Below are positions 1,286-52,700 of a stretch of DNA of 64,000 bases, one piece after another. Each line of letters begins with the position of its first letter. The first letter of the stretch is position 1. The notes beneath the pieces were generated by a model. It was not told the origin of the DNA and ran no database searches. It was given only the letters and a program-made list of their open reading frames with translations. The translations under genes and the position numbers were made by a program. Origin of the DNA: Bispira polyomma (lineage: Eukaryota); NCBI GenBank assembly GCA_965649765.1, contig OZ287751.1, positions 39,184,001 through 39,248,000 on the forward strand, written 5' to 3'.

Positions 1286-2016
1286 ATAGTTATTAATCAA
1301 AACATTTTTTTTTCAAATTTTTTATTGGGCCTAAACATTAAGGACAGCACTTGCAAAAGATGCAAAAAAACCATACAAAAACCATACATAAAAAACAATA
1401 AAGTACTGACAAAATACGGTACCCAAAACACAAAGAAAAAAAAAAAAAGAAAAATAAATGGTAAAAAACCCTCAGTGTTGTAAGTTTATTGAAATAGTTC
1501 ATTACTTTAATATATCGCTCATAACAGAATATTACCAAGTGCTTCCTTTCAACATATTTCCCTCAGATCAGATCATAGGTCGGTCGACGTCTGTTGCACC
1601 ATAATATTTTATTAATCAGGGGCAGAAAAATTGTGAAGTCTGTCTTATTGGATTGACATGGAGTACCAAGTAACACTTCTAGTAATGTAAATAAGGTCAT
1701 AATGTTCCTTGAACACCAATTTTAAAAGCTGTTTCAATTCCAGCCACAGGGGTTTAGTTTGGTACAGTCATAAATGTTCCAAGGTGTCCACTTTATTACA
1801 GTACCAGCATAAAGGGCTTTCTTTTACTTTCCATAGACATAAAATGTAAGTACATCCAAAAGTACGATGTATTATCGAGAACTGAAAACTCTGAAGTTTT
1901 AAATCTTGTGTAATCATTTAGGGTAAGCTATAAATTGTAGACCACATAGAAATTTCTAAAAAGGATAATACTTATCCCATTTATTCTCAGCTGCTGGTAC
2001 AGACTGGTGCTATGTC

Positions 2017-2223
2017 AATTTTATTGCATAAAATACACTTACCTCGTCCTAACAAATGCTTTAGTTGATGGCTGTCAACTAAACCACGGTTAAGTAGCCG
2101 AAAAAAGCTATCATACTACCTTAATACCTGTGGTTCAGTGGTGTACTAATTAACCCCCAATTAAGAAGGTCATGTGACCTCATTTGAATCTTCACACTGT
2201 TTTTGACCGTCTTAGTGTACACA
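2017..2223 (+). repeat. DIRS left inverted terminal repeat
   Basis: Reverse complement of about 7976-8163 with about 4 mismatches by eye. Contains hairpin TTTAGTTGA-N6-TCAACTAAA. Confidence 0.95.
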
Positions 2224-2268
2224 GCCATATTGGAAAATTTTAAGGAATTTTTGTTTTTTATTTATATT

Positions 2269-4246
2269 ATGGCGGATGATACTTCTAATGTTGTAAAAAG
2301 ACAATGCTGTATTTGTAAACACTGGCTTTTGGCCTGGGATCAGCATGATGCTTGCATTAGATGCAGATATGAGGGTAGATATGATCTTTGTGGACCAGAC
2401 ATAGCGGGAGTTTGCAAAATTTGTTTGTCTTTCACAGATGAACAATCAGATATTGTAAAAGCAAGGTTTCTTAAGTATAACCAGAAAGCATAAGTTAAGT
2501 CAATGGAAGATGCTTTACTGGGGGAAGAGACTGATCAGAACGTTGTTGAAAATATTTGCCCTAACGGTTCAAGAATCTCTGGCTTTGTTATTGACACAGG
2601 TTAGTTGTCTAGCAACAAGAATGGACAAATTTGAAAAACCCTCTACGACTAGTAAAAAAGATCCCGCAAAGTCTGCAAAATCTTCGGGGGGGGGGAGTCG
2701 ACTCACAAGTCGAAGAACTCATCAAAGCCAAAACCTGCTAAATCAGATTCCAACTCAAAGTCGGACTCGGCTAAACGCCCCAGTGAAGTTGATCAGAATT
2801 TGTTTAGTGGTGGGGATGTTGAGGAGGTTCCTAAACCTGGCTCTCATTCAAAGCCATCTAGCAATTCTAGAAAGCCATCTACAACTACTCCTGCTACTGG
2901 CTCTGCTACCCACAGATCATCTAAGACCTCTACAGTAACCTTACAAGGTTCAGGTAGCCAGGAAGAGCCTGAAAATCTTGATACCTCAGGCCACGGACAT
3001 ACAGGCCTTCATTTTAAGCCGAAAGGCTCAGAGAAACACTCTTCAGGCTCTACTTACCCTGATCATCGCTGCACAGGCCACGCTGGTTTTACTTCTGAGG
3101 TATCTGGAGAAGAGTCTGGTGACTTGTCGGAGTCGGACAGTGTCCACCGTAAGAGGCCTCATTCAGTTTCACCTTGACAGGAAAGTGATAGAACTTATGC
3201 TGAAACCGAGATTGACCCTTCCTACTCTGAGATGTTGACTGCAGTGAGAAAGCTTTTGGGTCTATCTGTACAAGTTCCTGAAGTCTCAGCTCCACCGGCA
3301 GTCTTCAATAAGAAACCTTCCAAGAAAGCATCCAATCTATAAGCTTTAGTTTTTCCACCGGCTGGAAATATGGAGGATGCCTGGAATTATAGGCAGAGGA
3401 AGGCATCTGAGAGAGATTCTGCAGGCAACCTGGGAGCTCAGCCTCTGGCTAAAGGACTTTTCCTGACGTTTGACAAACCCTCCATGAAGTGGTATACTAC
3501 TACACCTCAGCCATTTGCCTTGGTTCCTCCAAAACTACCAGATGGATTTTCCAATATTGTTAGATCGTCAACTTTGCCTTATATTTCTACACCAAGCAAG
3601 CAATATCTGGCTCAAGAGACAGCCTCCAGAGAGAACGTTCAGATATTAGGACATGTATCATGGTTTAGCTTGGCGCTTCAAGAGATCAACTCCAGGATTT
3701 CACAGATTTCATCTGATTTGAGAAGTTGTTCAACTAGAGATGTCTTCAACGAAAAATTAGACCTTTTAGATCATTTCACACAGTTACATTCCTCAATCAC
3801 AGCATCTTTGGACACTGGTTTAGAGACAATATTATCACACAACATGACCCTGGCTTGCAATTTGTTGCTCAATAGGAGGGATGCTTACCTCAGAGCCTGT
3901 CATGATCAAGTTACTTCAGATGACTCTTCTCAGATCAGCTCCTTTCGTTTCTAAGGAGGTTTTTCCTGCAGATGTGTTGTCCAAGGTTGAAAAACACTAC
4001 ATACAGAGACTTCATGTTCCAAAGTCACGTACTGAGTCAAAGGCACAGTCTAATCAACTTTTTGATTCCAGAAGGGACAACCATCAGCATAATCAAAAGC
4101 CTTACTCCAAGCCAGCCAGTCATCAACAGCCCCCGAAAAAGTCCGGGTCTTTTCGTCAGTTCGGTAGTCAGCAGTCCAGTAAACAGAACTACCAACCGAA
4201 CGCTCCCGCCTTCTGTGGTTCTCGCAGAAGAGGAAGGCGGAATTGA
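2269..4246 (+). pseudogene. DIRS gag-like ORF1, disrupted
   Basis: N-terminal Cys/His cluster (CCIC...DQHDACIRC...C..C), Ser/Lys-rich middle, LLNRRDAYL motif and basic C-terminus. Broken by stops and frameshifts into fragments at 2203, 2510, 2800, 3370 and 3881. Confidence 0.8.
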
Positions 4247-4249
4247 CTA

Positions 4250-6140
4250 TTGCGCCACCAGGCGAGCAGGAGGTCGTTTGAGAGATTTTTGTCAGGTATA
4301 GGAACAATTTCATCTTCATCCAAGTGTAGTTCTGATGTTACAACACGGCTATTGCCTAGATTTTCAGATTCGGCCAACCTTGGTCCGTTTTCTCACTGTC
4401 ATAAGTGGTTATTCGGATTCTCAGAAACAAAAATTACTGCTTCAAGCAGTAACAGATATGTTAGTAAAAAAGGCAATAGTCCCAGTTGTAAACAGAGCTA
4501 CACTAGGCTTTTACAGTCGATTGTTTCTAGTTCCAAAGCCCCAAAACAAATGGAGAGCAGTGATAGATTTGAGTATGGTCAACAGATTCCTAAACATTCC
4601 GACTTTCAAAATGGAAACGGCGGAGTCGATTCAAAAGTCTCTGGTCAAGGGCGAATGGGTGATATCTTTAGACCTCACAGACGCTTACTTTCATATACCC
4701 ATTCATCCATCTTACCAAAAGTTCCTCCGATTTCAGGTGGCAGATCGTGTCTACCAGTTTGTAGCTCTGCCCTTCGGTTTGGCGACAGCCCCTCTCGAGT
4801 TTACAAAGGTTGTGAAAGAAGTAAAATTTTTAGCTTGGGCTCACAATCTCAGAATTCACCAGTATGTCGACGACTGGATGTTGAGGACAAAATCTCGAGC
4901 TCAGTGTCTTCAGAAGACACAGCAATTGCTGATTCTAATTCAGAAATTAGGTTGGCTAATAAATTTCAAAAATCAGAACTCGTTCCAACACAAAAGCTCG
5001 ATTTTTTGGGATAGTGATTTAGAAAACGGCCTTGTGTTTCCAACCCAAAAGAAATGTTCCATACTCAAAGATCACATTGTTTCCATTCAAAAGTCAAAGT
5101 TTGTTACTCCAAGAAAGCTAATGTCTTTAATAGGTACCATGGCTTCCATGGAAAAGCAGATTCCATTGGCAAGAATTCACATGACACCTTTCCAATGGTA
5201 TCTGAAAAGGTACTGGATGTACCATCAGTCCCTAGATTTGAGGATTCCAGTCGAGTCGATTTTAAGGACTCATCTGGAATGGTGGGAAGATCCAAAGAAC
5301 CTTTTAAAAGGTTCTCCACTTCATCCAGAAGAACACAGTGTTCTGTTGTTCACGGATGCCTCAAACAAGGGTTGGGGAGCTCACATAGAAAACTTAAGCA
5401 CAAGTGGACTATGGAGCCCCTCAGAAGCCCATCTCCATATCAATCTGTTGGAGATGAAGGCTGTGTTACTGGCCCTGAAAAATTTCCAGTTTCAGGTACA
5501 GAACAAAGTTGTTCTAGCGGCATCAGACAACTCCACAGTGGTGTCTTATGTCAACAAACAAGGGGGGACACATTCTGTGGAAATGTGTCTGTTGGTCTGG
5601 AGGCTTTTGGCATGGACAAATGCCAGGGGCATTCAAATAAGAGCCAGACACGTACAGGGCAGTCTGAATGTTATTGCCGACTCCTTGTCAAGGAGGGACA
5701 AGACCATTCAGACCGAGTGGTCCTTATATCCAAGGGTGTTCAATGCAATCTGCAAACAGTGGCACAAACCAATGATAGACATGTTTGCAATCAAGCTCAA
5801 TCACATGCTTCCACTGTATGTGTCTCCTGTCCCAGACAGTCAAGCTTGGGCAGTAGATGCATTGAACATCTCTTGAGAGGGTCTGGACGGCTATGTGTAT
5901 TGTCCAGTAGCAGTGCTGTCGCAAGTGATTCAAAAGATAATCACTTACGATTGTCAGATGCTAGTCGTGGCTCCAGGGTGGCCTCAGATGCCATGGTTTT
6001 GGGATCTGGTGGAGCTCTCGGTAAGGCCTCCACTAGCTCTTCCACAGTGAGAACTATTGTTGAAACAGCCGTTCAACCACAAATTCCACAACAATCTGGA
6101 ATTCCTCAATCTTCATGTTTGGAATCTCCAGTCCCAGAGC
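4250..6140 (+). pseudogene. DIRS pol: reverse transcriptase, RNase H and methyltransferase-like domain
   Basis: RT motifs FYSRLFLVPK, LDLTDAYFHI, LPFGL, YVDD. RNase H motifs FTDASNKGWG, HINLLEM, SDN, NVIADSLSR. MT-like IDMFA...AVDAL...VAPGWPQMPWF. Premature stops at 4299, 5874 and 6048. End coordinate approximate. Confidence 0.93.
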
Positions 6141-6211
6141 CAAGTTCTGGAAGATTCTCACTTGAGGTGGAAAGCCGAATTAAGGCACCTTAAAGGGAAT
6201 TTTCCAGAAAA

Positions 6212-7185
6212 TTGTATCAGTCAAGGTGGTCCATTTTTAGAGACTGGTGTGTGGAGAATGAGGTGGATGTCAAAGCACCTTCTATTCCTCAAGTAGCTGA
6301 ATTTTTGAATTACTTGTTTATAGAAAAAGATTTGAAACCAGCTACCATTGTAGGCCACAGAACATATTGTAGATGGTTTGGGCTTGCTGGGCAACACTTT
6401 CTCAAAGAGTAGTGAGTTGAACAGACTTGTAGCTAGTTTCTTTAGAGACAAACCTAGAGCTAATAGAGCTATTCCTACGTGGGATTTAGTCTTAGTACTT
6501 TTAGCCCTTACAAAACCACCTTTTGAGCCATTGAGTGAAACTTCTTTAAAGTTATTGACCTTTAAGACAGTCTTTTTGATGGCTTTGGCTTCAGGGAAAA
6601 GGAGAAGTGAGATACATGCTTGGACTCATTCTTCTCTAAGTTTCAGGGAAAATTGGTCTGAAGTCACAATTTCCCCTTCCCCGGCTTTTTTAGCAAAGAA
6701 TCAGTTGGCCTCAGATGGACTAGATTCTCTTAGGCCAGTGGTCATTCCGGCCTTAAAGCCTACTCTTGATAAAGCTTTGATTGAAGATAGTTCTTTGTGT
6801 CCAGTCAGATCTTTAAAGTACTACTTAGATAGAACTAAGGATTTAAGGTCACACAAAAATTTGTTGTTTGTGTCTATGAAACAAGGTTTTGAAAAGGATA
6901 TTTCTAAGTCTACCAATTCTTTATGGATAAAACAGACAATTCTGTTTTGTTATAAGAATTGTGACAAAGAAGTACAACAAGTCTCTCAGGTTAAGGCTCA
7001 TGATGTGAGAGCCATGGCTGCATCTTTAGCCTTTAAGGGTGGCCTGTCTCTTGAGCAGGTATTGGGTGCATGTTTCTGGAAGTCTCATGGAACTTTCACC
7101 AACTTTAACCTAAGAGATGTATGTTGGAAGAATCAAGATATATTTAAGTTGGGTCCGGTGGTCTCAGCTCAAACTGTAGTTAACG
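6212..7185 (+). pseudogene. DIRS tyrosine recombinase (SAM-like N-domain plus catalytic domain)
   Basis: YQSRWSIFRDWC, ASGKRRSEIHA, LCPVRSL, HDVRAMAAS, WKSHGTFTNF, GPVVSAQ. Frameshift near 6365. Confidence 0.92.
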
Positions 7186-7823
7186 ATAGTAAGTTTCAAA
7201 TTACTAATCTTACTTTCATGTACCACACATTGTTATATGACATGAGTTACATGTATGTTTTGTTGTCTTTTCTTTGTAGACACCTCCACAATGTAGATAG
7301 TATACATATCATCTTGTACATATGTTGGGCCTTGAAGATATGCTGATATGCAGATGACGAGATCTTGCGGTCTCTGACAGAGCCTATCAACATGTCTTCA
7401 TCATATTTGTGGGTGATGTGATTGTTGAAGTTACCTGTTCTACCATCAAACTTCAGTGTTTTGTTTGGTGAGTAAAGTTTTAGACAGTTATACTCTCTTA
7501 CTCTTAACAGTAGCTTGTATTTTGTCTGGTAGCTTCATATAGTCATATATTCTTATATATTCATATGTATATTTTCATATATGATTTAATTTATAATTCA
7601 TTCTTACTTCATACAGTAGTTTGTTTTATGGTCTGGTTCTTTATCATATTCATGTATTTTAAGTAATAGTATATGATTATGTGTATATGTGCTGTGTCTG
7701 GGTTATTGTTTTTATTGTCTATTTTTTCATAGGTGATGTTTATTCCTGTATATTTGGCCTGTGCTTCAGTGTGTTTACTAAAGTTCAGAGAATTCGAACC
7801 CATCCAGCCGTATTTTTGGAATC

Positions 7824-7926
7824 AGCATTTGTTAGGACGAGGTAAGTGTATTTTATGCAATAAAATTGGTTAATTTTATTGTAATTATAATTTTTATAAA
7901 TAAAAATACCTACCTCGTCCTAACAA
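7824..7926. repeat. DIRS internal complementary region (ICR)
   Basis: 7824-7867 is the reverse complement of the left end (2017-2060). 7868-7926 is the reverse complement of the right end (about 8144-8202). The two halves are joined directly. Confidence 0.95.
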
Positions 7927-7975
7927 CTACATTCCCATCCCTTCTCCCCGCTTTTCGAATTATCTGGAGAGTTAG

Positions 7976-8204
7976 TGTGTACACTAAGACGGTCAAAAAC
8001 ATTGTGAAGATTCAAATGAGGTCACATGACCTTCTTAATTGGGGGTTAATTAGTACACCACTGAACCACAGGTATTAAGGTAGTATGATAGCTTTTTTCG
8101 GCTATTTAACCGTGGTTTAGTTGACGACCATCAACTAAAGCATTTGTTAGGACGAGGTAAGTATTTTTATTTATAAAAATTGTAATTACAATAAAATTAA
8201 CCAA
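7976..8204 (-). repeat. DIRS right inverted terminal repeat with right extension
   Basis: Inverted copy of the left ITR, plus an extension ending ...AAAATTAACCAA that is mirrored in the ICR. Confidence 0.95.
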
Positions 8205-9013
8205 GTTTGTGTAGATTTTTTTGTTTGTCAATTTTGAAATATTTGTTCAGAGATCGACAAATTTAAAAGCTAATTGGCTGTTTCATCATATTCTTGTTTA
8301 ATGATGCTTCTCCATTTTTTAGGTATAGCCCACAGTAATGAGTTATAGTCAAGTTGAGACAAGGTGCAGTTGTATTCCGCATCTATTTCTGATTTAGTTT
8401 AAAATCTCTTTTGGACAATTAATTCTCTTAGATGAGCAATACCTGTGTTTCGTATAAGGTCAAACTGTTCGCTTAGGGGTTTATTCCCCCTACCAATGTA
8501 TACTTATTATAACTTATTTTTCATGTTTTATTTTGTTTATTCCCAGAGAAAGGGTTTCAACCTCTTCCTCTCTGCACTGGGTGTCTAAAACATGCTATAA
8601 AGGAGGGAATAAACTAGGGTGGTTGTGCTATTAAAATAGAAATAATAAGTTAAATTTGTATTAAATAACTAATGATTTGTCTGGGGATACACCTGTGGCA
8701 AGTTGACACAATTTCTAGTTTTGAACAGAGCCAAGGCAGATTGTGTGAAATATGTATTTAAAGGGGCTTTATCAACAGTAAACAAGTCTGTCCCTGTGGT
8801 GTAGTACAAATACAGTGGAGCCTTTGTTAGCTGAGCTTATCGGGATTGGAGTTAACACAAGTTCTAGTGTCTTGCCTTAAAGACATTACCCCAACAAATA
8901 TTGTAAAGGCTTAGACCAAGTTTCCTGTCCTCGACAATACTTTGATTTTCACTGATGTATGCATGGCGAGAACAGAGTCGTTTACTATAGCATATCATTG
9001 TAAATCTGAATTT

Positions 9014-13091: not shown

Positions 13092-14328
13092 CAGTGTTAC
13101 AGATCCGTCAGATCCTATTGCTGATACTAATCGGGTCGGAGAGGTCGGGGCATGTTTAGGTTTAAAGTCGTATGACCTTTAAGGTCGATCGGGATCGATG
13201 TCCAATCAAAATGGGATGCAATCAGTTCAATCTTGAAAGTCGCCCCACATTTTAATTTTCCCGTTAAAAAATGAAATCAATTGATTTTATCACCCTGATC
13301 TCAAAAGTGGGCCCATTCTTCCGATCATACTTGTGAGTGGAACCCACATAAGGTTTTGAACCATACAGACCTGTTTATAGAGGTCACTTTGTGTGACTCT
13401 TTTGGTCTCAACAGAGTTACTGGTAAGGTTTTGTATGATGCAGATCTGTTTCAACGCCACCTTTATGACTCCAACATGTGTTTTGCTCTTTATCTGTCTG
13501 GTTTAGAACCTTTAAATGTATTGTAAATGTATAGAAAACCTGAAGTCAGAAACTATCGTCACAAAGGTCACTGACAATTTTACACGTTTTCCTAAAAAAA
13601 ACCCGATATGTTTATACTCCTTGACGTGTATGGAAACAGTACTTATAAGATAATTCACTTTTAAAGATGAAAATGTTATCTCTAATTTTCACTGAAATAT
13701 TTAATTGTGAAATTAAAGATTAAAATTTCAAAAGAAAAATAAATCTGTACGACAAAGACATTATTTAAACTCTATGCCCAAGATGTACGTGTGTCAACAT
13801 GTTAATACAAATACTTTCCTTTATATATATTTATAATAATAAAACAACTTTACAGAAAGTCAATGTATATTTTACTGTGAGAGGAGTGAATAGTTGTCAT
13901 CATTTGATCACAGTCCCTAGTTTAAATTCAATGTGTACAGTGACCTTACACTGCATATACTAATATGGTAGAATTCTATATCTGTGTAGACATGTGTGTA
14001 GAAAGTTGGGAAAATGGAAAGGACATCATGTACCTTACTGATTCACCACACCATACTGTACTTTTTTAAGTTATTTGGTGTCACCGTAACATATTTATAT
14101 CCGTGTAGTATATTGTAAAGTACTGGAATCTCCATATGGCTGAACAGAATGATATTAAGAGAGATTAGATTTAGTCAACAAGCACATAGTTCAAAGTATA
14201 TAGCATTCAGTATTCATCCAATCTGTAGTTTGTTTACCAACAACATTTACTGTTATTTTTGTTTATGATGACATTGCAAAAAGTGGCTTTTTATTAGCAG
14301 ATAAAAGTTTGTTTTGCACAATACAAAT

Positions 14329-17300
14329 ATGTTCGCATCAATCAGTGGAAATCACCTGAAAAGGATCATGCTCGGCCTTACAGTTGTCTTGGGGTGTTTG
14401 TGCGGAAATAGTTTAGCTTTAACAGGCGACATTTTAATAACAGCTATTCCAAGGACAGCAGTCGAACCAGGGATTTTAATATCACAACAATACAAAGTAC
14501 ATTCAACATATCAAGTCAAATTGGAAATTTTTATCGGTGAGTATTCGTCTTTTTTTTTTCTCCCCGACCGTGCTTTATTTAAAATAAGGGCTTTATGGTT
14601 TTTCTGATAATACATTGACATATTGTATCAGTAAAAAGAAAAATTTAATTTAAAGTTGATATTTTGTTTGAGTTTGTTGCATTTAAAAATTACCTTATGG
14701 ATGTTTTGATGGATGACATTTAGAATTTGAACCTTTACATGTATTCTGTATACAACACAAACACAAAACAATTTTTGCTTGAATGTTTCAATATCTCTCA
14801 AACATTTGGCCCTGACTTTTGAGTTAACTTTAATTTAAAACTTGAAATTAATGCCATTGTAAATTTGTATTTTCCTTATATAATCTTCTAACATTAAGAC
14901 CAAAATCCTTACTAATGTTGATGTTGAAAAATGACATATTTGTATTTTCAAGTCTTATATAATAGCATGGCATTGTATGTCTATATATAGACCATTAAGA
15001 CCCCAACCTAATCCCTCCTGTCTTAAGACCCCCCCCCCCCTAACCTAATCCCCCTTGATTTAAAACCCCCTAGTTTAATCCCTCCTGGCGTAGAACCCCA
15101 TTGAACGCTTTGTTGATATCTGTGAGCATTGGTCGTGCCATCACGAAAGCTTGTTCATGAGTGTTTTTCAGATTGCACCTATCAAGAGATATATGTGTCA
15201 TATAAGCATGAAATGTACTTAACTCTGTCTCAGGGACATGCTCAGTGTCAAAGGCCTCATTTATATTTCAGATTTTACTGAGCAGTTTATCAAACATAAT
15301 ATGTAAAATTATGTAACCATCATTGCATTACTGTGATTAAACTGGGGACTTTCACTAGTACAACGCCCCAACCACTACGCTAGAGCTAGGAGACCTTACC
15401 TGGAAAGAGTTCCAGATGCTTTGTTCTGAAACAACTGATACATTTATTGTTGTTTTATTGACTCTCTTGTGTATGCTGTGTTTAGATATGATACACTTGG
15501 CCTATGTTACACATGATACACTTGGCTTATGTTACTCAACAGATTTAAACTGTCCCACCAGCTATGAAGCCTACACCCACATTATCAAGCCACTGGCTGA
15601 ATATTACTCCACAGACAGTAGACTGGTAATACTGGCCCATCTCTATCCTCTACCATACCACAGGAATGCCATGTTGTCTACTCAGGTAAGAACAACATAC
15701 CACAGGAATGCCATGTTGTCTACTCAGGTAAGAACAACCATACCACAGGAATGTCATGTTGTCTTCTCAGGTAAGAACAACCATACCACATGAATGTCAT
15801 GTTGTCTACTCAGATAAGAACAACCATACCACAGGAAAGTCATGTTGTCTACTCAGATAAGAACAACCATACCACAGGAAGGTCATGTTGTCTACTCAGG
15901 TAAGAAAAACCATACCACAGGAATGCCATGTTGTCTACTCAGGAAAGAAAAAACCGTACCACAGGAAGGTCATGTTGTCTACTCAGGTAAGAAAAACCAT
16001 ACCACATGAATGCCTTGTTGTCTACTCAGGAAAGAAAAACCCGTACCAAATGAATGCCATGTTATCTACACATTAAGAACAACCAAAATTTAAAACCTAT
16101 CTCTTCAAACATGCTTAGCCCCTCAATTTCCACCTTGTACACCCCCGTATCCATCCTTACAACCTTGTCTATGTTTTTACAAATTTCTCGATTAGTTTAT
16201 TGATTTTGTTTGTTGTCAATAGGGCACCTTAAAATTGCAAAATACAAATACATAAAATACAAGATATTTTAGACGTTGAAATAGTCTTTATTGGGATTGA
16301 ACTGAACGTTGTGTTACCTATAGCCTTGTTGTTTTAATTCAAGTTAGTGTGATTTGTCAAGTTCTCTAATAGAGAAGGGTACTGAACAATGATTTGCAGT
16401 AGTTCAACCCACCAGTTCTGTCGTACCTGTCTGTGTAAATATCACTCTTGTTTACAACGATATACAGAGATATTTATCAGGAAAGTTGGTAGAGCACATG
16501 TCACACAATGAAAATGACTTTTACATTGCTCGAGGAAGAAGGTAAATACAGCAAAAAATAGAGAGCAAAATCTCTCTAACTATGTAAAAACAAAAAGGTT
16601 TTACCCTAGAAAGTAATTTGCAAGTGGGCTTTGAAGTTTTATAACCTAATTGCTAGACCACACCAGAAGTGAATGGCAGCGGGCAAGTGGGACTGAAGTA
16701 AAATCTCTCGCTGCTTCTTTTTGGGATGATCACTTTGCAATATTTTGTTTTTGATTAAATACATATGAAATATTATATATAATTTGTATATGCCACAAAA
16801 CACTTTTTCTTCTTTTCTTTGTAGGAGATTTATTTTTAGTTCACAATTTTTTTTTTGAACACCAGAAAATGTATCTCTTTATGACAATAATTACAAAGTT
16901 TTATGGCCAAAAATTTATATATAATTTTTATGGTAACCTTATATGTTGACAGAAGTCCTAAAGTTTATACTTCTATAGTATACTTGCTGGTGATCCAATG
17001 ATGAACATTAACCGATAACTGGGCAAACTTCCGGGTCATTTAGAGAACAGCAATGTTTGATATGATGTACATCAGTTTTAGTTTGGTCTGTGTTTAATGT
17101 ATCGTTGGGTCTTGTTGATTCGATGGCCTTCTTAATTCGATATTTGATGTTTTTCTTTATTAACCAAACACGTTTAGTGACATTTACATGCCAAAAAGAT
17201 ATTTTAACATATTTGGATTAAAATACAGCTCCAGTTTTCGCCAAGAAAGGTAATTTTTAAGGTGAAATAAGCCAACAAAAAATGGTTAAAACTATCGAAT

Positions 17301-20300
17301 TTACAAGACACCAGTATAGCAGGTCCTTGTGTCAAATCAGGATGGGCAGTAATACACTTGTGGAGGAAACCAGAGTAGGGTAGTTAGTCAGTGTTCTGCT
17401 CTCTAATCCACTAGAGTATATAGATATACAGTAGAATTATACATTGGCTTATTCTATGGAAATTCTATGTTTGTGTTGTTTTAATCTGTCTTCTCATTAC
17501 AATTAGGGAGCCTTTACAGTGATGGAGTATAACCCGGCGATGGTCTTGCCATACATAGAAGCTGTAATGGCAAAATGGGACCAACTCTCAACCTCCAATA
17601 CCAGAAACCTGTCGGAATATGAAGTGCTTCAGTAGGAAAAGAATTTTTTTTTAAATTAATGTAGATATATTGAATAGATATGGAAACCTATTTGCAGGTG
17701 CTATTTGTTATCTCGTAATTATGAGATAAACTATTTCCTGTTTTAAAATATTTTGTTCTCGTAATTACGAGATATGTTTTATTTAAAACCCAAACCGAAT
17801 GTTATAAGTCGTAATTAAGCGTCCCTTGAAAAGGGCACTTAGTTGGTTTCACCCCTGGTTTCCTCGCTGCCGCCGCCGCCGCCACCGCCACCGCATGGTC
17901 TTCCTTGAATATCTCCTTCAATATTATCTGCATCAAAATTATTTTTGGCAGTTCTCTTAACCAGGAGTGGGAAATTTTTTTGATATTCTTGGCTTTGAAC
18001 TTTGGCCTACTTAAATGTCAGGTGACCCTAGGGGTGTAAAAGTGCTTGTCCCTAGGTTTTCTCAGAAAGTATTCATCATAGCTCAATGAAATTTGGTATG
18101 TACCTTGGTAAGGCAATTTTGAGGATGGGAGACGCTGATGAGATTAATCGGATGATAATTGACCGATTGTCAACCGATTGATTTTTATTGAAATGCGAAA
18201 AATCGGTACTTTTTTGCTATCTCAGAAACTATTGGGATTTCGGCTTTTTCTTGGTATAAGTTATTCATCTACTTTTTGATTTTATGTATGATATAAAAAT
18301 CTCACAGTTCTAAGTCCAGTACTCAATGAGTACTGAGTACTTCAAATGAGTAGTTTGCTCTATTTTGCTCTATCTTGCACTTTTATCAACTTTTTTTTGA
18401 AGTACTTGTCATAGTTCAATGAAATTTAGCATGCACGTTGCAAATACCAAAGCATAGATGTCCGTAAATTTTTAGATCAATCTGGTGATAATTGATTGAT
18501 TGACAGGGTCGATCAAGCATACAAAATGGGGAAAAAAATGTGTTGATGGGTGCTTTTTTGAGCGTGTGAGGATTTTTTTATTTTTAATTTTAGACCAATA
18601 CATGCATCGCGTAACTTTTAAAGAATAGCCAGAATTTTTATTTATTTTTTACCCCATTCAAAAATATGCGATTGTTACTGAGATAAAACGATTTCAATTT
18701 CAAAAATTTTAAAAATTAAGGTTTTTTTTAAAGCGTTCATTATCTCGGAAACGGTGCTAGATAGAGCGATTTCGAGCTCATTTTCGACCCACAGGGTTGA
18801 TTTTGCTTATATGTAAACTTTAAAAGAATGTTCAATTTGGGCGGCCATCTTGAATTTCTGCGTCTTTTTCGAAAATGTCAAATATCTCGGAAACGGTGCT
18901 AGATAAAGCGATTTCGAGCTCATTTTCGACCCACAGGGTTGATTTTGCTCATATGTAAACTTTCAAAAAATCTTCAATTTTGGCAACCATCTTGAATTTC
19001 TGCGTCTTTTTCCAAAATGTCCGTTATCTCAGAAACGGTGCTAGATAGAGCGATTTCGAGCTCATTTTCGACTTACAGGGTTGATATTGCTCATATGTAA
19101 ACTTTTGAAAAAATGTCCAATTTTAGCGGCCATCTTAAATTTCTGGGTCTTTTTCGAAAATGTCCAATATCTCAGAAACGGTGCTAGATAGAGCGATTTC
19201 GAGCTTATTTTCGACTCACAGGATTAATTCTGCTTATATGTAAACTTTAAAAGAATGTTCAATTTGGGCGGCCATCTTGCATTTCTGCGTCTTTTTCCAA
19301 AATGTCCTTTATCTCAGAAACGGTGCTAGATAGAGCGATTTCAAGCTCATTTTTGACCCACAGGGTTGATTTTGCTTGTATGTAAACTTTCAAAAAAAAT
19401 TTAAATTTTGGCGGCCATCTTGAATTTCTGTGCTTTTTTCGAAAATGTTCGTTATCTCGAAAACGGTGCTAGATAGAGCGATTTCGAGCTCATTTTCGAC
19501 CCTCAGGGTTGTTTTTGCTTATATTTATACTTTTAAAAAAAGTTCGATTTTGGTGGCCATCTTGAATTTCTGCGTCTTTTTCGAAAATGTCCTTTATCTC
19601 GGAAACGGTGCTAGATAGAGCGATTTCAAGCTCATTTTCGACCCACAGGGCTGATTTTCCTTATATGTAAACTTTTGAAGTAATATTTGATTTGGGCAAC
19701 CATCTTCAATTTCTGCGTCTTTTTCGAAAATGTCTGTTATCTTGGAAATGGTGCTATATAGAGCGATTTCGAGCTTATATTTGACCAAAAGTGCTGATTC
19801 TGCTTATATGTCAACTTTTAAACAATATCAAACCTTGTACACTAAACAATTTCATTATTATTTTAACTTTAGGGACGCTTCGTTTTTGTTATCAAAAACC
19901 AAAAATCTAGTTACATTCTTGTCATTACTATGTTTCTACAAATATTGGGGGGCGGCGGTGGCCTAGTCGTTAGCAAGCATTGCGCTTCACAATCACTGGT
20001 CTCTCACCTCTGGGATCGGCTGGCGTGGGTTCGACTCCCGTCGATGCCTATGTGTGAAAGGTGGTAGTTCCTTACTGTGGGCCGCTGGTTTCAATGCAAA
20101 ATCTTGATCAACTGTATACGGTGTTTCCTCCAGCGTTTCCAACTACTCGTCCCAATATAAGCTAAACAGATACTAGAGTGGATAATAAATATCCCAATTC
20201 AATTGAAAAAAAAATTCTACAAATATTGGCTCTCTCCTAATGAGAGCGTTATTAATAAAGTTTCAATAGAGATTCTATCTGCTTAAAATAAATGTGGGCT

Positions 20301-23238
20301 ACACAAGTATTAATAATCATAGACTGTTAGGGCCTATGTATCATGATTAGGGCTTAAAATACTTTACCAGACACTGTTTTGTTTGAGATTATATTTTGTT
20401 AGAAGTATTTTATTGGGCAATTTAAAACTTAACAATGCGTTCATATACACCTTGTGTAATATATGAGTACATTATAAACAGTCTTAAATATGAAAAGAAA
20501 ATGTGAAAAATCTGGTTTGGACAGATTGGCATAAAATGCTATTTTATTTTATTTTTATATAAAAAAGAAAAATTATTTGATGAAACTTTCCTAATATTTA
20601 CTGTCTTTTTATTGTTGACATAATGTTGAAATACATATAAAACTGACATTTTTTGGCTTGTATCAGTCAAGTGCATGCATTTTTGTTTGTGTATTTTTAA
20701 AAAGGTACATAACTGTGCTAGCTGTACAATCTACAGGGATCAGTGGAGAGGACTTCAGAGCTCACATAGACACATACAGGAGTCATGTACAGAAAGTCTG
20801 GAAATATGGTGCTAAACGTGAGTGTTTGCCCTCTTCTTATATACCGTAAACATGCACAGTTAACATGGTAGAATCTAATGCTGTGGTCACACTGGCCTTA
20901 CGTTTCGATTAAGCACAAAAAATGTCTAAAAATATAACACATATAAGTGAAACATTAGAATTTGCATAGTGAACGTAGTGTACTTAAGTGAATAGGTGAG
21001 TAAGATGGTCCCTTAAATTCAACATTTCGTGCTGCACAGAATTTACCTCTGTTGGGGGAGTTATTGCTGATCTCCACTAAAACGGTTGGTGCGTTCGCAG
21101 GTAACTAATCTGAAGTGTCATCACCTTCCAAACAATGGCAATAAATCATTGCTTTGTAATTAAATCAATATATTTAACATCACAACAAAATGCCCTCTCA
21201 ACCCTTTAAAACAGTAGGGTACGACAGACTTCTTGCAAGATAAACAACAGTTGTCTTATTAAAAAGACATCGGCACACAGTGTAACTACCAGTGTGACAG
21301 GGTTGGTTGCTTCCAACCAATCCATGAAGGCCTTACATATTATTTCCAACATGGCGGTTGTGCCTGATAATCGCCTGGTAATATAAATCTGACACCCCTC
21401 AGTTTGGACGGGTCGATTGCTTTCAAATCAATCCAAATGGTATTTCTAAGATGGCAGCAGCCTGTTAAATGGTGGTGTCCTTGTGAGAGTGAAAACAACA
21501 TCAGGCTATGCCTGACAAAAACACCTCACTAGGGTTGTTGTTTTGTGTGTGCGTGTGTAAAACATTAGACAGTTCAGAGACATTCCAAACATGACTCCTC
21601 TATGTACGTATTAGTGGTGCTTGGTATTTATCATGACAGCAGTTTGTGCCCCCGACAACTTCACTGTTTCCATTTTCTCCCTCATAATTCAGTTTTGCTC
21701 CATTTTTCCCCATTTCATCCCTAGTGTGCAGGCAGCCATTCTTCCATGTCTGGACTTTTTCCCAGGACTTTACCACTGCCGCCATCAGTGTTTAGATATG
21801 GCCATTTATTGATGGATGTATCCTTCCGAGAATTTTGCAAAATCTGGCTAAATTGATAAATGTTGTTTAGCTGGGATTTTGTGGGCGGGAAATCAAGAGA
21901 AGAAGGAGGAAATGTGTGCAGAAGGGAAGACTAATGAGGTTTTATGGAGATTGTTTGTCAACGGCAAATATGAAAAAGGGGGAAACTTATTAAGTTAGAA
22001 GATCCCAAGATATCAACTTTAGAATGTCAAAGTGGGACTTGTAGTTCGATTGAGAGGACTCAGATGCCTATAATAATCCAATGGAAAAATGGTCAAGTAA
22101 AAATGCTGAAACTATGCTAAAAGGATGGAAAGGCATGGCCATTTATTTTATCTGTTGATAACACAAAATTAGAATGTCAGTATTGTGTAGGAATGAAAAT
22201 GGCTGTAATAATGATAACAATAATAATTATACTTATCAGCAATATTATAGTGTTCTTATTGAATCATGCATAATAATCTAACATGCAACCAGTTATGCTT
22301 TAAAATCATACATAAAATCCCAACCCAAACGAAGAATTCACCATCTGTTGTGTGTTTTATCAATGTTACCTTTTTTGTCATCTTTTTTACAAACGTTTTA
22401 TAGCGTTACCAAGAATTAAGGGTGGTTCTCACAATGCGGTATGCAATACACAATGTGTGGTATTTAAGCAGCTATAATAACATTCCTTGGTGCAAGGTAC
22501 AGTAAATATGTGATTCTGGCATGTGAAACCCCTTCAACTGTGAGGACTTGAACCATGAATTCACCAGAATAAACTCCCTTTTTAATACCTCCTGTACTTT
22601 GACCTACTTTTTAGAGACCACTTCCCCAACCATGAATTTCACCAGATCAAACTCCATTGTCTTTATGCCTTTGGTACTTTGACCTCCTTTCAGAGACTAC
22701 TTCTCTAACCATGAATTCCACCAGATCAAACTCCCTTGTATCTATACCTTCTGTACTTTGACCTCCTTTCAGAGACCACTTCTCCACACATGAATTCCAC
22801 TAAATCAAAGTCCTTCAGCCTTATACCTGCTGTGATTGCCACCTCTCTGATCAAGGGTTTGATTCTCACACCACAGCATGTGTGTGGGAAAGTTGGCATG
22901 CAGTACACTTTCTGAAGGCCAATAGTTCTCAGTGCTGAAAAAATCTTTAACAAATACCCTGTACTGCGTTGATCCAGCTATACACTACCAATTGTGATGT
23001 ATTACATAGTTGTTGAAATTGGTGTTAATCCGTACATTCATTGACACCTTGTTATGTAAAAGCTTATTTGTTTTATTGATGTCTTGTACAAGGTGGTGTT
23101 GCTGCGACTCCAACATTTTTTATCAATGGGATACAAATGAATCTGCCCGATGACAGTACGTTACCCATGGACAAATACTTGTGGATAGGGTATATAGATG
23201 ATGTGCTCAAGGAAATGAATGACATTGTAAATTATTGA
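14329..23238 (+). CDS. A1: secreted DsbA/thioredoxin-fold (Thioredoxin_4-like) protein, CxxS; exons 14329-14536, 15543-15685, 17507-17631, 20705-20817, 23093-23238
   Basis: GT-AG junctions give one open frame: signal-like LGLTVVLGCLCGNSLA, then LEIFIDLNCPTS, YPLPYHRNA, KYGAKRGVAATPTFFING. Internal exon lengths (143, 125, 113) and phases match paralogue A2. The start could instead be ATG 14368. Confidence 0.88.
14997..15098. repeat. C-rich short tandem repeat (about 30 bp, 3-4 copies) in A1 intron 1
   Basis: AAGACCCC..AACCTAATCCCTCCTG repeated. Confidence 0.6.
15651..16085 (+). repeat. 43-bp minisatellite, 10 copies, spanning the A1 exon 2 splice donor
   Basis: Unit ACCATACCACAGGAATGCCATGTTGTCTACTCAG|GTAAGAACA. 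The first copy is the true exon end. Confidence 0.95.
16088..16260 (+). mobile_element. Short 3' remnant of an L2-like LINE
   Basis: AAAACCTATCTCTTC (KTYLF) as at 62960, followed by an AATAC-type tail. Confidence 0.5.
17815..19912 (+). mobile_element. Complete Helentron/HINE-type element with 8 copies of a 142-143-bp repeat, in A1 intron 3
   Basis: 5' subterminal IR AGCGTCCCT (17818) with an adjacent short IR, (GCC)n microsatellite, central tandem array 18720-19810, 3' subTIR AGGGACGCT (19871), hairpin GTTTTTG-TTAT-CAAAAAC, then CTAGTT. Confidence 0.82.
19947..20214 (+). mobile_element. Full-length tRNA-derived SINE with target-site duplication
   Basis: A box GGTGGCCTAGTCGTTAG, B box GGGTTCGACTCCC, A-rich tail, TSD TTCTACAAATATT at 19934 and 20215. 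Confidence 0.9.
22552..22850. repeat. ~78-bp minisatellite, about 4 copies, in A1 intron 4
   Basis: ACCATGAATT(T/C)CACCAGATCAAACTCC...TGTACTTTGACCTCCTTTCAGAGACCACTTC repeated. Confidence 0.85.
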
Positions 23239-24254: not shown

Positions 24255-25424
24255 TGTACTTGTCTAAAATTGAAAATAAAAAAAATCCTCACTTGCTCAA
24301 AAAAGCCAAAAACGAAGCATCCCTGAAGTTGAAATAATAATGAAGTTGTTGAGTGTACAAGGTTTGAAATTGTTTAAAATTTGACATAAAAGCAGAACCA
24401 GCAATTTTTTTCAAATATAAGCTCTAAATCGCTCTATCTAGCACCATTTCTGAGATAACGGATGTTTTTGAAAAAGACGCAGAAATTTAAGATGGCCGCA
24501 AAAATTGAAATTCCTTTAAAAGTTTACATATAAGAAAAAGCAGCCCTGGTGGTCGAAAATAAGCTTAAAATCACTCTATCTAGCACCATTTCCGAGATAA
24601 TAGATGTTTAAAAAAACCCTGAATTTTCAAAATTTTTAAAATTGAAATTTTTGGTATTAGTAACGATCACATATTTTTGGATAGGGTAAAAAATCAAAAA
24701 AATCAGGCTATTTGCTGCATGTAGTTGTCTAAAATTGAAAATAAAAAAAATCCTCACTCGCCCAAAAAAGCACTTTTTGTCCCGTTTTGTATGATTGATT
24801 TACCCTGTCAATCAGTCAATTATCACAAGATTGATCTAAAAATTTACAGACATGTATGCTTTGGTATTTGCAATATGCATGCCAAATGTCATTGAACTAT
24901 GACAAGTCTTTCAAAAGAAAAGTTAATGAAAGTGCAAGATACAGCAAAATAGAGAAAACTACTCATTTAAAATACTCAGTACTCATTGGGTACTGGACTT
25001 AGAACTTTTTACATCATACATAAAACTAAAAAGTAGATGAATAATTTATACCAAAAAAACGCCGAAATCCCAATAGTTTTCAAAATAGGCAAAAAGTACT
25101 GATTTTTCACATTTCCAAAAAAAATCAAATGGTCGGCAATCATCCGATTAATCTCATCATCCTCACCTGTCCAGAAAATTGAGCCATGACAAATACTTTT
25201 TGAGAAAACCTAATGACAAGCACTTTTACAACCCCAGGGTAACCTGACATTTAAGTATGCCAAAGTTCAAAGCCAAGAATTTGAAAAAAAATTTCCCACT
25301 CCTGGTTAAGAGAACTGCCAAAATAATTTTGATGCAGATAATATTGAAGCAGATATTCAAGGAAGACCATGCGGCGGTGGCGGCAGCAGCGAGAAAACCA
25401 GGGTGCTTTTCAAGGGACGCCTAA
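24255..25424 (-). mobile_element. Third HINE-type copy, inverted, with about 2 satellite units
   Basis: Reverse complement of 17815-19890, including the subTIRs (AAGGGACGC near 25412, AGCATCCCT near 24316). Confidence 0.82.
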
Positions 25425-34800: not shown

Positions 34801-35380
34801 TGTGTCTGAGAAAGTTATAAGACAGGTTTAGGTAGGCCAGCTGGTTAAGCAGGGCGAAGGCACAGGGTTGGACCTCGTACAGGAGGCATTCTTCCAGGCG
34901 GATCTCAGTTATATTAGGGGTCTGAGTGTGTGAAAAGACGGAATGCTTTAACACATATATAGGGTTCACAGAGAGCTTAATCACAGAGAGTTTCTTCAGT
35001 CCTGCAAATGTTGAATTGGTTAGCCCGGTGATTTCATTGTTTGTCATGTATAAGAAATCCAGATTCACCAGCTTGTCCAGTGCCCCAGATTTGATGTACC
35101 GCACATTGCTGTTCTCCAAGCTCAGTGTCTGAAGGTGAGCATACGGTACTGACTCCAGTACTTCTATGTTGGCCTTGTCTATGTTCAGAACCATGAGAGA
35201 CTGCTGGTAGTTGCTAGGCATCTCGGTGACATTCCCCCCGGAACAGTTTACTGACAGGGTCTTGTTGGAGCAGCTACAATGAGGTACAGGTTCCTTGGGA
35301 CAGAATCCAACCGCAGAACACAACTGGGTGCTTAGAAGTAGAACTACTGTACGGCAGCAGATAAGGAGTGTCCGAGACAT
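31881..35380 (-). CDS. L1: single-pass LRR membrane protein (signal peptide, LRRNT, about 10 LRRs, LRRCT, TM, short tail); exons 35380-34365 and 32118-31881
   Basis: CPKEPVPHCSC cap, LxxLxLxxN repeats, NPWDCSC, phase-2 GT-AG intron into CASP, TM ALTAVFAVVVALIGIAAIVVIVL, RIRKRRKR stop-transfer. An alternative in-frame ATG lies at 35419. Confidence 0.9.
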
Positions 35381-35912
35381 TGTTATGTTGTAGCAACAGG
35401 ACACTTGTCTGACGGCCATGTTATGATGGGTCCTGAAATAAAAAAGAGATACACTGATTATATAGACATTGCAGTGTTTAGCAATAGGACACTTGTCTTC
35501 CAGCCATGTTATAATGGGTTCTGAAATAAAAAAAGAGATACACTGATTATATAGACATTGTAGTGTTGAAATAGAACACTTGTCTGACAGCCATGTTATA
35601 ATAGGTCCCGAAATCAAGGAGATACACTGATCATATATTAGATATTGTAGCATTGTAGTAATAGGACACTTGTCTGACAGCCATGTTATAATGGTTCCTG
35701 AAATCAAGGAGATACACTAAATATGTATTAGACATTGTAGTTTTGTTATAATAGGACACTTGTCTGATGGCCATGTTATAATGGGTCATGCAATGATCAT
35801 ATATTAAGACATTGCAGTTTTGTAGTAATATGACACTTGTCTGACGGCCATGTTATAATGGGTCCTGAAATCAAGGACATACAATGATTATATATTAGAC
35901 ACTGTAGTTTTG
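35376..35912 (-). repeat. ~88-90-bp minisatellite, about 6 copies, spanning the L1 splice acceptor and start codon
   Basis: Minus-strand unit ...TTTCAG|GACCCATTATAACATGGC(C/T)GTCAGACAAGTGTCC...ACAATGTC. The last copy supplies the L1 ATG. Confidence 0.9.
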
Positions 35913-49735: not shown

Positions 49736-52700
49736 TCAAAACTCAATGAGCGTGGCGTCCATGCTGATAATAGTATCATCTATATACCTAATCCATGCCC
49801 CCAGAGTGTCAGTATCCCCTACACTCAGTTCCATACCATTAATGAAGAAAGTAGGTGTTCCTGCCACACCACCTAAAGAATAAAAAAAAATACAGGATAT
49901 GAGTCAAATATGCTTCTGCATTTAAAAATGATTATTATTATGTTTTCACCTCTATTAAATTTGAATTGATTTGGGTTTTAGGTCGCTTTCAACAGCTTTG
50001 GTCATATTGCGCCGGCCAGGTTTAGTGTTTGGGGAAACCAGTGCTTCAGCACTGTAAACCACCGAACTATGGCAAGTACCTGACAAACTTTCTTACGTGA
50101 AGAAGGAATCTGTGGGATTCAATCCCCAGAGGTGAGAGGGCGGTGATGTTAAAGCAGACTCTTAAAACCACTTGGTGCTAATGAAGAAAATACAATGCTG
50201 TACATAATGCCATATTTATAGAACTATATGTGTAACTCACGTTTTGCTCCATATTTGAAGACCTTCTTACAGTGTTCTCTGTAACTGTCTATCTGGGCCT
50301 CAAACTTTGCAGGGTCTACCTGTGTGGATTCCACAGCCAGGGCAGTGATTTTCCTGAAATTTGCATGCATAGCTTTTACGTTTATTTCAACTGATTGTAG
50401 AAGTTTATAGAGTAATCTTTCATTTTTGTGTTAGTCAGTAAAATTATGAAATGGTTTTAGTTGTTTTTACTAATTTCACTACCCTTCATCTAGTACCCGT
50501 GTTTCTTCAGTTAGGCACTCCCCCAAGGCAACGCATTGTCAAAATGTGGGAAAACAAATACTGGACCCACCTTTTTGCCAAGCTTCAGGCCTCATCCCTC
50601 CACTAAATTTTTTCATGTAACTTTGGTTTTATGTAGTTTTTGTGTAATTCTAGTGCCAAATAATGTAAAAAAACACATATCCAAATAGATGGAGGCAATA
50701 TCTTAACATGGATATGACCTGTTTTGTATATAAAGTCGAAAATAACAAATGCAAATCTGTAAGAAAAGGTTTAATACACCCGTCTGTAACTATTATTATT
50801 ATATATTTTTTAACGCACTTAAACGATGCTACGCATTTTATAAAGCGCAACAGCAGAATCATTAACTACAACTATATACCATTATTAACAACAATTAAAA
50901 GATGAACTCTAAAATATACTGTATTTAGTATTGGTATGTTTTTGTTGTTTTGAAAATATACGAATAACAACATACTTGAGAACTTCCCATTCAGTATCAT
51001 TCCTTGTATTCATAACACCCAGTGGCTCCCACTGCGCTAACACAGCCCCGATATAGTCCAAAACTCTCTCAGGTTTGAGGTTTTGAATGACAAACATCCC
51101 CTGCAACATGGATTATCAATCAACTTTAGCTACACAACTAAATAATAAATCTGTGTTATGGTACATGATAATACATCCACTTTATGTATACATGTTATAT
51201 TACAATTGTCTTCATTGGTAAACGGGTTGTGCACTTGTTTTGAAACAGCTATTTAAGTCACTCAAATGCTGTATTATTCTAGGTATCAGTTTCACCCACT
51301 GAGTGGATCATAAAATGTGTTGCTGTTATTTGCTGTTGACAGTTTTGATATAGTATTCTGCAGGTTATGGCTATGGTTACTTAAGGAATCATTGTACTAT
51401 ATCAAGGGACTGTAATTTCTGATTAATCTCTTGTTTGGATCCACGCCCGAGTGATGTGAAGGCCATGTGAATGTAAAACTTGTGGTCATACACTCCAGAA
51501 GTATTTATGTGTCTATGTTAACTTTTAACAGAGATATAGAAACCATTGGTTTTGGGATGAGTCTGACCTCAAATTGACGTATATATTTTTGGCACTGGTG
51601 AATTTGAATTTATTTGGGTTTTACACCGATTTCAACAGCATTGGTCACATTGTGACGGCCCAAACTAGTGGTTTGAAAAACCAGTGCTGCAGCACTGCAA
51701 ACCACCGACCTACAGCAATCTGTGAAATTGAATCCCCAGAGATGAGAGGCCAGTGATTTTAAAGCAGACTCTTATAACCGCTGGGCCATCGCGGCCCCTT
51801 TTGCACTAGTGAATCTCCCCAATCCTTTGTTAGTGCTTGGTGTATTGATTGAAGAAGTGGATCAGTCAGATTAAAAGGTATACCATTCCATTGAGTTCAT
51901 AAACATTTTAAATGTCCCACTAGTCATTCAATGTTTTAACGGATACCATAGCCAATACTGTTTGAGAAACAAAAGGCAAATATTCATGTGAAAAGAAATT
52001 GATTTCCATTGAAAATAGTTTACTTGAGTTTTACTTGAAGAAAACAACAGAAAACAGTGTCTTACCTGGGTACAAAGTATAGCATTTCTATGGTATGGCA
52101 GAGGAAACATGTGCCCTTTTATGATGAGTTTGTCCTCATTCGTATAATGCCTGGCCAGAGGTCTGAGGATGTCTCTGTACGCCTCATAGCTGGATGGGCA
52201 GTTTAAGTCTGAAAACAACTAAATGTCATTTAAGGCCCTAGAAAACCATATTACATCACCATTAATATGTTAGTAAATTTTACCGTCTATTCTATCAATT
52301 ACTGCTGTCCTCTCCCTTGTGCTTAGACTGCCAAGGTCAAGAGCACTGGGAGGGTAAATTGGTGGTGTAGGTGCTGGGTGCTAACCCACGTTTACTGGCC
52401 GGAGCTGCCAATGCACCTGTGGCCCAGGCATTTAATTATATACACTTTACATTACATTGAGAATAACATTTAATAAATACAACGCATAAGCCTGAAAAAC
52501 CTCAGGTAGCCTGAAGACACAATGAGCGTAAGGAATTAGGTAAGGTACCTTTATGAATAACAGAACAGGCCTAGAAATAATAAGTAGTCTTAAAGTAGAC
52601 AGGTCAAACGTTAGGGTCAACTTAGTCTAAGGGTTAATGCAAATATGTTACCAAAAATATATTTTTTTTAATAAGTGTGGTGTATGTTATAAATAAATAC

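Follow-up and report, generated by a model that had tools for sequence, protein, structure and literature searches.

Ten tandem splice-donor copies in a probable mirage minisatellite of a putative thioredoxin-like gene of Bispira polyomma, and counts of minisatellites at exon edges in its genome

Introduction

Minisatellites whose repeated unit contains an exon–intron boundary have been described in amphioxus as "mirages", with examples in Adh3, the globin genes BflGb6 and BflGb9, troponin C and PGBD5 (PMC3087553, PMC3902484). According to these papers, mirages leave splicing undisturbed, and many but not all of their units keep the AG/GT. Units at the edges of an array are reported to escape homogenisation (PMC3087553), the same pattern that we find here. 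In humans, the 37-bp VNTR in intron 7 of F7 contains identical donors of which only the most upstream is used, and the next donor takes over once the first is mutated. Arrays in LMNB2 and PDGF are described as behaving like F7 (PMC1557585). CBS and IFI6 additionally use the two nearest pseudo-sites, as the Introduction of the same paper relates (PMC1557585); the CBS array is a 31-bp VNTR of intron 13, c.1444_1467+7(16_21) (PMC1557585, PMC2630376). Other published cases are the dual-specific AGGT sites of human UBC (PMC10809524), the repeats at exon–intron boundaries that have created introns in human segmental duplications (PMC2812944), and the earthworm metallothionein arrays, which are reported as intronic (PMC12783039) and have no bearing on the present locus.

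We analysed a window of 64,000 nucleotides of the Bispira polyomma genome (GCA_965649765.1, contig OZ287751.1, positions 39,184,001 to 39,248,000, forward strand) that contains a gene, A1, with a donor array behind its second exon. Like the amphioxus mirages, the array carries an exon–intron boundary in head-to-tail copies, with a unit inside the 10–160 bp range reported there, and in both genomes 5' and 3' boundaries are affected. The animal and the gene are different, and normal splicing and length variation have been shown in amphioxus; the amphioxus papers list single loci, whereas in the present genome the class is counted against control motifs. A1 shares with F7 a first unit that spans the exon end and the donor, followed by identical spares at a spacing of about 40 nt. 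The F7 unit, however, has 4 exon and 33 intron bases compared to about 34 and 9 in A1, its donor is weak (consensus value 74) whereas that of A1 is strong, and its pseudo-sites are all intact whereas A1 keeps GT in five of ten units (PMC1557585). The mostly exon-derived unit (24 + 7 in CBS) and the substitutions inside units are common to CBS and A1. Exclusive use of the first site is proven for F7 and two nearby pseudo-sites are in use in CBS and IFI6, whereas for A1 we infer donor use. In UBC, tandem AG|GT sites also lie at unit boundaries, but there the units are coding monomers of 228 nt that are removed in frame, whereas those of A1 are intronic, 43 nt long and mostly frame-shifting (PMC10809524).

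Results

The host gene

The gene model of A1, on the forward strand, gives a product of 244 aa from five coding exons. Coding exon 1 (14329–14536) starts with ATG, encodes a hydrophobic N-terminus and is 50% identical to exon 1 of the paralogue A2. Exon 2 (15543–15685, 143 nt) aligns to the homologues P0001 and P0002 and ends in PLPYHRNAMLSTQ, its last 34 nt being the exon part of unit 1 of the array. Exon 3 (17507–17631) provides the acceptor for intron 2; it is followed by exon 4 (20705–20817) and the coding part of exon 5 up to the stop (23093–23238). In A2, exon 2 and exon 3 are each as long as their A1 counterparts. Its exon 2 with a single CAG|GTAAGA donor lies at 52060–52208 on the reverse strand, and the initial annotation was right that this junction is shared with A1 and has no array; it falls at the same codon. 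In a third paralogue, on the same contig as A1 (L006:1342-2100; G000:C4, about 82.09 Mb), A1 exons 1 and 2 are represented by what looks like a single exon, again with the donor at the same codon. The intron of this paralogue has an array of about 50 bp that begins roughly 15 nt in and leaves the donor outside.

P0001 and P0002, retrieved in a search with the third paralogue, match Thioredoxin_4/DSBA and are continuous across the exon 2–3 junction (PYHRN..TQ|G), with no insertion. With an E-value of 6.5e-5, P0001 reaches the PF13462 (Thioredoxin_4) cut-off, and it aligns to A1 exon 2 at 48% and to exon 3 at 39%; the third paralogue itself gives E=0.011 against PF01323 (DSBA). No thioredoxin-family match was obtained when the A1 exons were scanned singly against Pfam, a homologue search with A1 exon 2 alone found nothing, and the paralogue exon, searched against PDB sequences, returned spurious PCNA matches only. 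A1 is a putative thioredoxin-like gene, with a DsbA-like fold (PF13462, PF01323) suggested by way of its homologue P0001, and it differs from DsbA-like thioredoxins in having a single CP cysteine instead of CxxC.

Structure of the array

TRF analysis places the array at 15652–16085, with a period of 43, 10.1 copies and 90% matches. The ten tandem donor copies reported behind exon 2 in the initial annotation are thereby confirmed, in units of 42, 43, 43, 43, 43, 43, 44, 43 and 44 nt followed by the last unit. Each unit consists of about 34 nt of exon end and about 9 nt of intron start, and ACCA is found at either border of the array (CTACCA at 15650–15655; AACAACCA ending at 16086), which fits a duplication primed by microhomology. 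Units 6–7 and 8–9 form a dimer repeat (15870–16043, with intact donors at 15900 and 15987 and dead ones at 15943 and 16030). The two dimers differ at 3 of 87 bases, and unit 6 is identical to unit 8. Unit 10 (16044–16086), which has a decayed donor and continues into unique intron sequence, is the most diverged, with 6–9 differences from every other unit. Both the dimer and the diverged edge unit are signs of concerted turnover. The authentic copy is a terminal unit: exon 2 closes with unit 1, at the same codon at which A2 and P0001/P0002 go on to exon 3. The array is therefore a mirage in the sense of the amphioxus work, a minisatellite-sized head-to-tail unit that spans an exon–intron boundary.

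The array sequence occupies a single place in the 1.035-Gb assembly, which rules out its origin as a dispersed repeat or transposon. An assembly artefact is unlikely, as units and variants are recovered in contigs from DNA runs: the contigs pile up on the first two units in 3/3 runs (depth 717 in X1, compared to 92 on the flank, for the region 14300–15740, which takes in the first two units), and the contigs carry the unit variants present in the assembly, the three runs being from one study that is possibly the assembly's own source. Over the same first two units, neither the joint nor an array-less allele was seen in the contigs of these runs.

A 25-bp duplication at 15488–15535 ends 7 nt before the exon 2 acceptor, so that exon 2 has repeats at both edges. 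Two inverted copies of a repeat (17853–18977 and 24364–25403, 1.1 kb, 80% identity) bracket A1 exons 4 and 5; they contain a 142-bp tandem unit that recurs at 120–1056 and 18740–19822. Two further mirages lie in the window. One, of acceptor type with a 60-bp unit (59010–59414, forward strand), has units made up of TTTCACAG and the beginning of the LRR-gene exon that follows, and its last copy (acceptor 59387) opens an exon reading ...GNPWHCDCSL. The other, with units of about 77–90 bp (35375–35912, reverse strand), repeats the acceptor and start codon of an LRR gene, and its last copy (ATG at 35419) opens a long frame with LRR_8. A retrotransposon-like element at 2016–8208 has overlapping long ORFs and terminal or internal inverted repeats, and resembles the tyrosine-recombinase (DIRS/Ngaro) type.

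The donors and their predicted products

Re-reading the units gave the same state for every donor as the initial annotation. CAG|GTAAGA is intact in copies 1, 2, 3, 6 and 8, with GT at 15686, 15728, 15771, 15900 and 15987. Copies 4 and 5 (dead donors, 15811–15862) read CAG|AT (15814, 15857), copies 7 and 9 CAG|GA (15943, 16030) and the decayed copy 10 CAT|TAAG (16074), so that the splice dinucleotide is retained in 5/10 units. The spare donors are strong (8/9 match to consensus). We reject the idea that RNA structure hides them, since every one of 100 shuffled sequences folds better than the region itself (z +3.3).

Donor 1 (15683–15691) lies at the junction that matches A2 and the homologues and would be the site in use. 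Donor 2 (15725–15733), at +42 nt, would add VRTTYHRNAMLSTQ in frame, as the initial annotation stated, that is 14 residues, giving 258 aa compared to 244 aa. Its statement that later donors frameshift or include a stop also held in translation: donor 3 (15768–15776, +85 nt) shifts the frame and leads to a stop in exon 3, and donors 6 and 8 include the TGA of unit 4 (15791–15793), which is in frame when read via donors 1 and 2. The use of donor 3, 6 or 8 is predicted to give products of 152–153 aa with stops 212–431 nt before the last junction, and such transcripts are, from general knowledge, likely targets of nonsense-mediated decay.

Minisatellites at exon edges in the genome

Three CAGGTAAG words 25–50 nt apart give 1159 matches in the genome, compared to 272 for the reversed word, although the single words are just 1.4-fold apart (32,599 and 23,195). 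Among the matches listed, the first 100 for CAGGTAAG make up 21 arrays, within the initial 75 Mb of contig C1. The reversed word, with its first 100 matches listed out of 272, makes up 6 arrays over 413 Mb, and a second control motif, CAGCTAAG, listed in full with 39 matches, makes up 13 arrays across the genome. Donor-bearing arrays thus occur at 0.28 per Mb, compared to 0.013–0.015 for the two control motifs. This is an enrichment of 19- to 22-fold per Mb, and of about 14-fold per motif site relative to the reversed word. If C1 is typical, the genome total is estimated at 240–290 arrays for this one donor word alone, and we estimate that similar repeats number several hundred. The word AAGGTAAG shows the same pattern, with 876 matches compared to 206 and 22 arrays in C1.

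The frame that ends at the first donor scores above the Pfam cut-off in 6/21 CAG-type arrays (MSP, peptidase C78, bMERB, calpain, Sec63 and WD40) and in 3/20 AAG-type arrays (ankyrin, ephrin-receptor-like and tyrosine phosphatase; 17 frames were long enough). An apparent exon precedes the array in 18/21 CAG-type arrays, as judged by eye and without a control. For the acceptor word TTTTCAGG, 106 matches were found compared to 34, and 5/20 arrays, in mirror-image geometry, end at an exon above the Pfam cut-off; this sample of 20 omits the later contigs and six other copies that belong to a single C7 family. None of 19 control arrays has a Pfam exon in the motif's own orientation. On the opposite strand, one of them forms an acceptor mirage with an NAGLU exon and another does so weakly (zf-C2HC), so that the control counts are conservative. 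A preference for donors over acceptors is not established by these counts, as the fraction of real sites covered differs between the two 8-mers. Authentic sites stand at the head of donor arrays and at the end of acceptor arrays, which would fit a spliceosome that picks whichever site lies closest to the exon core.

In L058:369-3316 (reverse strand) the intron is almost wholly a 105-copy acceptor mirage with a 29-bp unit, between two apparent exons; this array was found with a control motif and has no Pfam match. The calpain exon of L049 has duplications at acceptor and donor alike, and a nested acceptor mirage adjoins the HhH-GPD exon of L090. L072:1553-2686 is a coding 48-bp repeat with KK-xFDSIG-like peptides, which to us resembles a neuropeptide precursor.

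Retention of GT in sister arrays

GT was scored in all 21 CAG-type arrays and in the 20 of 22 AAG-type arrays that were retrieved, with units found by their flank columns alone. The arrays had been selected by three intact motifs, so that arrays losing GT early and throughout would be missed (the G+1>C triple was counted: 13 arrays). Downstream donors have kept GT in 259/268 cases in the CAG-type and 218/235 in the AAG-type arrays, or 477/503 in the 41 sister arrays together. Counted as distinct alleles, changes at GT compared to the other six motif columns stand at 8:45 and 13:38, respectively. The pooled ratio, 21:83, places 20% at GT where 25% is expected (one-sided P for excess 0.90), and the deficit is not significant (P=0.31). 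In the whole genome, where two intact units are followed by an intact third in the 1159 matches, freeing positions in the third unit adds 71 matches for GT, 99 for -3/-2 and 140 for +3/+4; these counts are not independent, and the 140 may include secondary donor-like words. Protection of the downstream GT is a hint only, since the unit counts of 9:77 in the CAG set are inflated by one alternating array and the result is not repeated in the AAG set. Some arrays, such as L054 and L056, have 14–16 perfect spare donors behind apparent exons. In the 29-bp array of L053:2140-3215 (oriented) GT is kept in 25/27 downstream units, and the -1 base is altered in 9.

Discussion

We regard it as probable that the A1 array is a mirage minisatellite of which donor 1 is used, while the other nine copies drift without effect. 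A 43-base piece spanning the junction was probably first duplicated at the short ACCA repeat and thereafter multiplied, probably by unequal exchange, in an order of events that we infer from the units. By analogy with human F7, the spliceosome would choose the first donor as the nearest site across the exon. Leakage via donors 3, 6 and 8 would be removed by nonsense-mediated decay, and the losses of GT would be neutral.

It has also been proposed that donor 2 gives a tolerated isoform. Here the product with 14 additional residues would be a kept one, and the loss of 1 nt in unit 1 would have been retained for the sake of the frame. The offset is exactly 42, the nearest pseudo-sites are in use in CBS and IFI6 (PMC1557585), and the insert repeats YHRNAMLSTQ, so that the second copy could occupy the normal position. 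An in-frame offset is, however, expected one time in three by chance, and A2 and P0001/P0002 have no such insert. Nor do donor arrays favour in-frame spacing: a multiple of three is found in 9/41 sister arrays compared to 35% expected and 15/39 in other arrays, a hint of a shortage at most (P=0.10). We consider a maintained isoform improbable; minor use of donor 2 may occur.

The initial annotation had concluded from the lost GTs that harmful decoy donors are selected against, that is, that spare donors steal splicing and changes that kill GT are favoured. A1 does have the lowest retention among 42 arrays (4/8 with unit 10 unscored; the next is 8/11), and a naive Fisher test against the sister arrays gives P=6e-4, a value obtained from units that are not independent. 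The other seven donor positions are unchanged in units 1–9. The losses, however, represent three alleles, G+1>A in the neighbouring units 4 and 5, T+2>A in units 7 and 9, and the decay of unit 10. The four clean losses thus trace to two mutations, each common to two related units and copied by duplication, which is one of the two outcomes that the annotation itself had named as speaking against selection. Three of 14 distinct substitution alleles across 43 columns fall on the two GT columns (binomial P=0.025; 2/10 without unit 10, P=0.076), and random placement of the observed allele patterns gives P=0.066 for at least 5/9 GT losses and P=0.10 for at least 4 among units 2–9, all of these values overstating the case because the locus was chosen for its GT loss. 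Over the whole 9-nt donor, 3 alleles are found compared to 2.9 expected. The anatomy of the unit was described correctly, but the contrast is weaker than the statement that the rest of it is well kept implies: the C>T of column 14 affects 5 units and changes at column 38 affect 4, similar to the number of GT losses, and 3/43 adjacent column pairs are altered in at least 5 of 9 downstream units. The frame-breaking donors 3, 6 and 8 are perfect, so the harm would remain, and no excess of GT changes is found in the 41 sister arrays or in the whole-genome counts. Selection against decoy donors at A1 is not supported, and we hold it to be very unlikely. The loss of GT at A1 is what three mutations give in a homogenising array.

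Each CTCAG|GTAAG had further been likened to a recursive-splicing site, a resemblance that holds for the AG|GT and its pyrimidine tract (11–13 pyrimidines in 18 nt at unit ends, 10–13 at the true A1 and A2 acceptors) and fails for the branch site, as no YTRAY-like motif, itself degenerate in animals, was found at -45 to -10 of nine unit ends. The stepwise removal of intron 2, with each CTCAG|GT serving as acceptor and then as regenerated donor, is most improbable: tandem AGGT sites are described as spliced in this way in human UBC (PMC10809524) and GT is, if anything, under-mutated in the sister arrays, but that deficit is not significant on distinct alleles, intron 2 is just 1.8 kb long, A2 does without the sites, and splicing to the AG of a GT-dead unit would create pieces of 43–173 nt that shift the frame in 5/5 cases.

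With the A1 array read as a mirage whose first donor is used, the locus alone is one more case of a known kind and likely harmless. What is new is the count, against control motifs, of the bias of minisatellites to exon edges in one genome; a literature search of main texts, with most subscription journals outside its scope, found no genome-wide count of mirages. It is plausible, if not quite probable, that the birth rate of minisatellites at exon edges exceeds that elsewhere more than tenfold, with about 1–3% of strong donors and many acceptors carrying mirages, as a result of junction-directed or exon-seeded mutation on a genome scale. We favour the explanation that arrays seed readily in exon-like sequence and survive only where the mRNA is unchanged, because in 15/21 arrays more than half of the unit comes from the exon (P=0.08, the boundary having been set automatically and roughly) and because arrays occur at either end of exons.

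The sister arrays show that many perfect spare donors in a row are tolerated and not purged, and the first-donor rule of human F7 would thereby extend to an invertebrate. If the enrichment is mutational, the origin of mirages, posed as an open question in the amphioxus work (PMC3087553), becomes testable with hundreds of loci, and mirage junctions can be expected to trip up both gene annotation and read mapping. If minisatellites are indeed born preferentially at exon edges, the genome would offer natural experiments, in the hundreds to thousands, on the spliceosome's choice between identical sites, and the arrays would be a lasting supply of new introns and extended exons.
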